Shown: in pieces, positions 6,859-8,016 of the stretch | How the letters are laid out: the number at the start of each line of letters is the position of its first letter | How positions within the stretch are numbered: position 1 is the first letter of the stretch | IMG/VR virus record: IMGVR_UViG_2700989173_000009 | Strand: one strand, 5' to 3' | DNA from: a virus | Taxonomy: Duplodnaviria > Heunggongvirae > Uroviricota > Caudoviricetes | DNA length: 15,712 nucleotides | Made by a program: the position numbers and the translations under genes | The notes under the pieces: model-generated | Database searches by the model: none | What the model was told of the DNA's origin: nothing | What the model saw: only the letters and a program-made list of their open reading frames with translations

Positions 6859-8016
6859 ATGCAGAGAATAATCGAATTACGCCAGCAGAAAACCGCCATT
6901 AAAAATCAGATGCGCGACATGCTGGAGAACGCTGAAAAAGAAAACCGCAGTCTTAACGATGCTGAGGGCGCAAAATTTGACGAATTACGCGCTAAAGCTG
7001 AATCCCTCGATAAAGACATTTCCCGCCTTGAAGCCATTGCAGACGAAGAGCGCAGCAAGCCAGGTAAAAGCAGCCAGACCACTGACCCCGCAGAACTACG
7101 TAACTACATTCTGACCGGTGAAACCCGCGCATTAAGTACAGGCGTTCCCGCTGATGGTGGTTATACCGTTATCCCTGAACTGAACACCGAAATCATGCGA
7201 ATGCTGGCGGATGAATCCACCATGCGTCGCATCTGTACCGTGAAGAAAATCAGCAGCAACGAGTTTAAGCAGCTTGTTTCCGCTGGCGGTGCGACCGTTA
7301 ACCACGGTGAAGAGGGTAAGGCACGCGAACAGACCAGCACCCCGCAGATTAACGAGGTGAGCATTAAGCTGTATCCGGTCTATGCGTACCCGCGCACCAC
7401 ACAGGAAATCGTGGATTTTTCCGATGTGGACATCCTTTCATGGCTGACGGGTGAGATTGGCGACACCTTCACGGAAACCGAAGAAAGCGATCTGGTTGTG
7501 GGCGACGGTGACAAAAAAGCAAAAGGTTTTTTATCCGTACCCCGTGCAGAGAAGAACGACAAAGAGCGTGATTTTGGTACGTTGCAGGTAATTAAACCTT
7601 CCGAATCTCTGGCGTGGACATCTGCGGACCCGCTGATCGACCTGAAATTTGCATTACGTAAAAAATACCGCAAAAACGCGGTCTGAGTGGTTAACTCCAC
7701 GACGGCGGCAAAACTTCAGAAGGTGAAGAACGCGAACGGTGATTATATCTGGCGCGACCGTTTACAGGCGGGTGATCCTGATACGTTGCTGGGCCTTCCG
7801 GTCGAATATCTGGAGTTTATGCCTGATAACGTTATTGCCCTGGGTGACTTCAAACGCGGTTACTACATTGTTGATCACGAAACAGGTGTTCGCACCAGAC
7901 CGGACAACCTGACAGAACCAGGATTCATCAAAATTTTCACGCAAAAATATTTAGGCGGTGGCGTGGTGGATTCGAACGCGATCAAGATTCTGGCACTGCC
8001 GGAAGACGACGATTAA
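6859..8016 (+). CDS. Major capsid protein, HK97 fold, with N-terminal scaffold-like delta domain; reading frame interrupted by one in-frame TGA at 7684-7686 (possible pseudogene or readthrough-dependent)
   Basis: Two ORFs in the track (6811-7686 and 7687-8016) are in the same frame and separated only by TGA. N-terminus MQRIIELRQQKTAIKNQMRDML... is a typical coiled-coil delta domain. The C-terminal segment (...GDYIWRDRLQAGDPDTLLGLPVEYLEFMPD...) resembles the conserved HK97-family C-terminal region. Protease and portal genes follow. Start at 6859 is preferred over the track's 6811 GTG. Confidence 0.8.

Follow-up and report, generated by a model that had tools for sequence, protein, structure and literature searches.

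EcCIEDL933 of E. coli O157:H7 EDL933 is the prototype of the capsid-forming PICIs (cf-PICIs; Alqurainy et al., bioRxiv 10.1101/2022.09.08.507074; He et al., bioRxiv 10.1101/2025.02.11.637232). Its capsid protein (PDB 9GYI) forms a T=4 shell of 240 copies (He et al., bioRxiv 10.1101/2025.02.11.637232). The protein is processed at about residue 92, and only phage tails are needed for the spread of the element (Alqurainy et al.; He et al.). When the genes of the packaging module were mutated singly, transfer was abolished and replication was unaffected in each case, with the exception of a mutant of the hypothetical gene 1792, for which transfer was severely reduced, and a helper phage with an HK97-type capsid of its own did not rescue the mutants (Alqurainy et al.; He et al.). 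Mutants of the residues K290, D295, E319, and R345 each abolished EcCIEDL933 transfer as well (Alqurainy et al.; He et al.). In the founding cf-PICI paper, S. flexneri was named among the carrier species of such elements.

Gene content of the island

The window, that is, the whole stretch of 15,712 nt analyzed here (IMG/VR virus record IMGVR_UViG_2700989173_000009), contains an island that sits between roxA and phoQ; it begins with the integrase gene at position 1 and ends at about 14.2 kb, just before phoQ (Table 1). The PICI core, consisting of an integrase, an AlpA-type regulator, and a replication (primase) gene, is present, all on one strand. The head and packaging genes all occur in the canonical order, with the capsid gene interrupted by W276* and the start of terS located behind a run of N. 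End-to-end alignments to intact E. coli proteins were obtained for the protease, the portal protein, the head closure and connector proteins, the HNH endonuclease, the 60-aa ORF, TerL, and the 93-aa ORF. An earlier reading based on the sequence only had described the stop in the capsid gene as the sole disruption of the head module, and within the window this description holds: the other head genes align end to end without stops, the 5' end of terS being masked by N. Tail-like ORFs were not found in the island. A size of about 15 kb and the lack of tail and lysis genes are among the features by which cf-PICIs are recognized, and the island shows both; it has the same layout and insertion site as islands of E. 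coli, that of O157:H7 among them. The element is an EcCIEDL933-type cf-PICI, present here as the S. flexneri copy with a nonsense mutation in the capsid gene.

Table 1. Features of the island and its right-hand junction, in coordinates of the window
Feature	Position	Strand	Remarks
Left arm of island	1–5515	+	integrase through primase
Integrase	1–1230	+	
AlpA-type regulator (Phage_AlpA)	1605–1793	+	
Small ORFs	1851–3465		left arm
DUF4222	3471–3770	+	
D5_N/DUF5906 primase	3767–5515	+	
Two small genes	5804–6082, 6079–6384		
Major capsid gene, 5' fragment	6859–7686	+	codons 1–275 plus premature TGA; aligns to 9GYI residues 1–275
Premature stop TGA (W276*)	7684–7686	+	G-to-A at 7686 from TGG
Major capsid gene, 3' fragment	7687–8016	+	codons 277–385 plus TAA; 12.1 kDa if ever translated
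Terminator-like GC-rich hairpin, then T run	8026–8047	+	consensus scan only
Prohead protease (Peptidase_S78)	8056–8628	+	intact; 190/190 aligned, no stop
Portal protein	8630–9841	+	intact in window; 403/403 aligned, no stop
Head closure	9838–10176	+	intact
Head-tail connector	10173–10469	+	intact
HNH endonuclease	10469–10909	+	intact
60-aa ORF	10893–11075	+	intact
Run of 50 N	11118–11167	.	assembly gap or masked stretch; hides terS start
Small terminase (TerS)	11177–11515	+	readable from 11177 (residue 7); no stops
Large terminase (TerL)	11499–13160	+	no stops
93-aa ORF	13174–13455		intact
Chromosomal phoQ	14252–15712	−	right-hand junction

The 50 N in front of the readable part of terS lie between near-duplicate short sequences (...GGACAAACC[N50]GACAACCCCGCCCC...), whereas the other S. 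flexneri copies are uninterrupted at this site (GGACAAACCCGACCCCGCC), and the run enlarges a mechanical ORF (11057–11515). The hairpin between the capsid and protease genes, GAAGGGGCT-AAAA-AGCCCCTTT followed by a T-rich tail, is strong and could raise the level of capsid mRNA relative to the downstream genes.

Upstream of the capsid gene, a 53-aa ORF (6394–6555) represents a fusion remnant, the first approximately 25 residues of which match the N-terminus of the island SSB, and the remainder residues 54–76 of the PerC-family regulator. Therefore, a deletion took most of ssb and perC. An identical ssb'-'perC remnant, annotated as two pseudogene fragments, is present together with an intact capsid gene in E. 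coli MFDS1006657, which implies that the deletion predates the stop. At 6577–6599 of the window (9356–9741 in locus L003), six of seven fetched S. flexneri loci contain an extra 363 bp that include a 74-aa gene. A terminator-like hairpin (GCAGCCGGAGCAATCCGGCTTTTT) stands on either side of this insert; the window and CP004057.1 have a single copy of the hairpin and no insert. Neither the ssb'-'perC remnant nor the lack of the 363 bp was accepted as an S. flexneri lesion, since each state is also seen in E. coli islands whose capsid gene is intact. In the left arm, a 248-aa ORF on the plus strand (1851–2597) is kept in all S. flexneri copies. No PHROG match or Pfam hit is on record for it, and a full-length counterpart is missing from all six E. 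coli islands compared. On the opposite strand, a 109-aa ORF (1843–2172) overlaps the 248-aa ORF.

The stop codon in the major capsid gene

At about positions 7678–7695, the window reads GCG GTC TGA GTG GTT AAC. Translation of 6859–8016 yields a single frame of 385 codons with one internal stop (...KYRKNAV*VVNSTTAAK...). The upstream piece matches positions 1–166 of the Phage_capsid profile PF05065 and the downstream piece matches positions 169–278, and after repair of the stop to Trp the protein gives one unbroken match (profile 1–278 of 280, E = 2.4e-61). Thus, one domain has been cut in two, and the description of two capsid ORFs in the same frame, parted by a single TGA, was correct. The upstream ORF had been taken to begin at 6811; this start was not confirmed, given that the annotated homologues and the solved structure start at ATG 6859, which results in a protein of 385 aa and 43.0 kDa. 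GTG 6811 is merely the first GTG after a stop and was chosen by a mechanical ORF list, and GTG 7687 is Val277 of the intact capsid protein. Over 385/385 residues, the repaired protein shares about 98.7% identity with PDB 9GYI (E = 2.5e-253), and it also matches the RcGTA capsid 6TB9 (E = 1e-46).

The 5' fragment comprises the scaffold-like N-terminal domain, which in EcCIEDL933 is cleaved off at about residue 92, together with the beginning of the HK97 fold. Its 275-aa product has a predicted mass of 30.8 kDa, which processing at residue 93 would lower to 20.3 kDa. The 3' fragment accounts for the C-terminal P-domain strands and the greater part of the A-domain, including K290, D295, E319, and R345, all of which lie past residue 276 and are hence missing from the 275-aa product. 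With an alignment of 29 sequences as input, AlphaFold2 gave a model of poor overall quality (mean pLDDT 49); residue 276 falls in a beta-strand (275–278) predicted with a local block-mean pLDDT of about 66–79, the sole basis of which is this otherwise poor model. The solved structure 9GYI makes the model needless. For the mature EcCIEDL933 capsid protein, residues 93–327 and a mass of 32.6 kDa are given (He et al., bioRxiv 10.1101/2025.02.11.637232). The computed masses are 32.5 kDa for residues 93–385 and 26.1 kDa for residues 93–327, so that the range looks like a misprint, the stated mass fitting residues 93–385.

Two E. coli copies aligned to the window over 181 bases around the site match it fully except for TGG in place of TGA, the copy of strain Xuzhou21 also showing one T/C difference. 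We searched 5426 complete E. coli genomes with 35-base queries, for which each 28-base seed was forced across position 7686. The TGG version was found in 356 copies in 339 of the 5426 genomes, the TGA version in none of them, and a query with TAG at codon 276 also retrieved no copy from the complete E. coli genomes. In 125 clusters of full-length homologues with identities down to about 66%, including proteins of Citrobacter, Salmonella, Morganella, Proteus, Xenorhabdus, and Photorhabdus, W276 and N279 are present without exception, and A274 in 117 clusters. The A-x-W-x-x-N motif that had been proposed for this region is real for the capsid subfamily (A274-x-W276-x-x-N279), as is the suggested Trp at the position of the stop. 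In the distant RcGTA capsid protein, Phe occupies the equivalent position. Homologues that end naturally at this site were not found, as all 356 E. coli copies carry TGG. Judged from these alignments, the ancestral codon is TGG (Trp276), from which TGA is derived by one G-to-A change.

The Trp276 form of the exact protein of the window is absent from a collection of 15 billion proteins, in which no immediate intact ancestor was found. A 109-aa C-terminal capsid fragment (P0018, with the E. coli-type ending ELPQDDD) is annotated as a protein of its own in a few E. coli assemblies, on 17 contigs with a maximal length of 5.3 Mb, and some E. coli may thus have undergone an independent disruption of the capsid gene upstream of codon 277.

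Distribution of the stop codon and its interpretation

At least 1000 contigs (NCBI, ENA, and Logan) and 3556 index blocks of an assembly collection contain precisely this truncated protein of 275 aa, under source names such as "bacteriophage protein [Shigella flexneri]" and "phage capsid family protein [Shigella flexneri 2003036]". We fetched seven S. flexneri loci, among them complete chromosomes of 4.5–4.6 Mb and one metagenome scaffold. All seven, including the most divergent ones, have A at position 7686, and in all of them the 275-aa and 109-aa genes are adjacent. The comparison of the locus between related strains, which the sequence-only reading had suggested, thus gives TGA in the seven S. 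flexneri loci and TGG in the E. coli copies. The S. flexneri copies vary among themselves at 34 other sites and, therefore, represent independent samples of one lineage; over positions 1–11117, the window is 100% identical to CP004057.1. W276* is carried by S. flexneri genomes generally, that is, it is lineage-wide.

The in-frame TGA could have several explanations, of which a lineage-fixed inactivating nonsense mutation that grounded the satellite, a case of ordinary gene decay, is very probably the correct one. The G-to-A change at 7686 turns the TGG of the invariant Trp276 into TGA, and translation should halt after residue 275. Such a truncation would deprive the HK97 fold of its C-terminal P-domain strands and the greater part of its A-domain, the 240-subunit T=4 shell could presumably not be built from the 275-aa fragment, and the helper capsid would be no substitute. 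Formation of capsids and self-packaging are not expected because EcCIEDL933 capsid mutants fail to transfer and because the truncation removes essential residues; from the published mutants, capsid formation and transfer are both expected to be lost. Excision and replication functions look intact, so the island may still excise and replicate and yet be unable to package itself. The mutation would then have been passed on vertically in S. flexneri, with the rest of the module now gaining further lesions. It counts against a knockout that the window shows no damage in any further head gene, and that tRNA-Trp reading the UGA would restore exactly the wild-type residue and yield a trace of full-length protein. 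Of the possibilities that had been raised from the sequence, inactivation resulting in a satellite without capsids is the best supported, although the mutation is not private to the assembly of the window. A second one, a sequencing or assembly error that conceals a true TGG, is virtually excluded: the 50-N gap in the window's assembly is located just 3.4 kb from the stop, but the identical truncated protein recurs in independent NCBI, ENA, and Logan assemblies, several complete genomes among them, TGA is found in all seven loci despite their differences elsewhere, and a shared systematic error is implausible at a simple, non-homopolymer G/A site.

Alternatively, the stop might be leaky, so that low-rate decoding by tRNA-Trp would provide a few capsids and rare transfer, and the satellite would be throttled rather than dead. 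For a reporter in E. coli K-12, readthrough of UGA by the normal tRNA-Trp ranged from about 2% at 37°C to 4% at 25°C (PMC10570021), and, as stated above, the residue inserted would be the original one and the other head genes are all intact. This explanation is nevertheless unlikely, in that the stop is derived and not conserved, with Trp in 356/356 E. coli copies and 125/125 clusters, and comes without a stimulatory RNA structure. The 86 nt from the stop region onward (7675–7760) folded no better than shuffled sequences (z = −0.94), a scan of the window matched no Rfam family, and a tRNA scan of the island detected none. RF2 is unusually weak in K-12 and more efficient in non-K-12 strains, and UGA followed by G is not known as a leaky context. 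Furthermore, the capsid protein is the subunit needed most, at 240 per shell, and a drop of at least 50-fold, combined with a large excess of the truncated, scaffold-bearing subunit, would probably reduce assembly far more than proportionally; portal and terL lesions in other S. flexneri copies also speak against a leaky stop. Readthrough that limits the dosage of the capsid protein, as envisaged in the sequence-only reading, is unsupported, given the derived stop, the missing stimulatory structure, and a demand of 240 copies per particle. It is very unlikely that the products of the split gene are themselves useful, either the 275-aa fragment as a decoy that is dominant-negative against HK97-like phages, or both fragments as a split capsid protein, in which the 109-aa piece is re-initiated at the adjacent GTG and joins the first piece. 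GTG 7687 abuts the stop, making re-initiation after termination conceivable, the stop has persisted across the lineage, and both capsid-gene SNPs among the S. flexneri copies are synonymous, as opposed to six non-synonymous ones in the portal gene. However, no purine-rich ribosome-binding sequence precedes this GTG, the cut takes out the invariant Trp, a two-gene organization is seen in no homologue (356 E. coli copies and 125 clusters), and vertical inheritance alone accounts for the persistence. In addition, EcCIEDL933 spares its helper, and its proteins avoid those of the phage (bioRxiv 10.1101/2022.09.08.507074; 10.1101/2025.02.11.637232). Overall, it appears quite unlikely that the UGA is anything other than a clean knockout, be it that a trace of capsid protein made with tRNA-Trp allows rare transfer or that the 275-aa fragment is retained against HK97-like phages or rival cf-PICIs. 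If either were true, the grounded satellite would be a host-beneficial module.

Continuing decay and comparison with known systems

Lesions beyond the lineage-wide stop were counted in eight S. flexneri copies (the window and the seven fetched loci), and six intact copies served as the E. coli set. One copy (L004) has a second nonsense mutation, portal Q388*, equivalent to position 9791 of the window. In another copy (L005), a 777-bp IS1 insertion is present in the left arm (at about 3248) and a 1-bp deletion splits terL (at 12457, both given as window equivalents). Among the SNPs in the head module, 13 are non-synonymous and 5 synonymous within S. flexneri, vs. 65 and 243, respectively, within the E. 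coli set (Fisher p = 1e-5). Nine non-synonymous and three synonymous SNPs were counted in the left arm within S. flexneri. Very recent polymorphism, and Shigella polymorphism generally, is rich in non-synonymous changes. Because the left arm shows a similar ratio and the polymorphism is young, the ratio in the head module, although compatible with a loss of constraint, does not specifically indicate a dead module. The capsid gene contributes only two SNPs, both synonymous and too few to interpret. All six portal SNPs within S. flexneri are non-synonymous, one being a stop; the contrast between the capsid and portal genes is nominally unequal but involves very small numbers and was spotted after the fact.

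A survey of cf-PICIs based on gene content would count the S. flexneri island as a working element, although its capsid can very probably not be built. As a naturally occurring capsid-null allele of the cf-PICI studied best, the island could be revived by a one-base repair, and it exemplifies the stranding of a satellite in a host lineage. The practical value of the case is modest, it reveals no new mechanism, and a specialist would not be surprised.

In-frame UGA codons are also known from programmed readthrough and selenocysteine recoding, as exemplified by the Q-beta coat/A1 protein and the SECIS element of fdhF. The capsid gene resembles these cases in that the ORF continues in the same frame after the UGA, but it differs from them by an unconserved stop at an invariant Trp codon and by the lack of a known recoding element downstream. 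Programmed readthrough or selenocysteine recoding was rejected for these same reasons: the stop is conserved in no homologue, a downstream structure is missing, and the site is an invariant Trp codon.

Shigella genomes decay by nonsense mutations, frameshifts, and IS insertions, which give rise to pseudogenes. Like such pseudogenes, the capsid gene carries a single-base nonsense mutation that is fixed in the lineage, with extra lesions, including an IS1, in some copies of the island. Unlike the pseudogenes of host metabolism, the lost gene belongs to a mobile element, so that mobility is what is lost.

The closest likeness is that to EcCIEDL933, with which the island shares the order of int, alpA, replication genes, major capsid, protease, portal, connectors, HNH, TerS, and TerL, as well as the absence of tail genes. 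In O157:H7 strain Xuzhou21, which has the serotype of EDL933, a related island adjoins phoQ, at the same site as the island in the window, and the head proteins of the latter are 95–100% identical to the E. coli copies. In contrast to EcCIEDL933, the capsid gene in the window has W276*, and ssb and perC have shrunk to a fused remnant; the replication module is of the D5_N/DUF5906 primase type, whereas that of the O157:H7 island is of the DUF927 type. EcCIEDL933 makes T=4 capsids and transfers, whereas the island in the window is predicted to be unable to form capsids. With the engineered capsid and packaging mutants of EcCIEDL933, it shares the loss of its own capsid protein. However, those mutants are laboratory deletions and point mutants, whereas W276* is a natural nonsense allele that has become fixed in a pathogen lineage.
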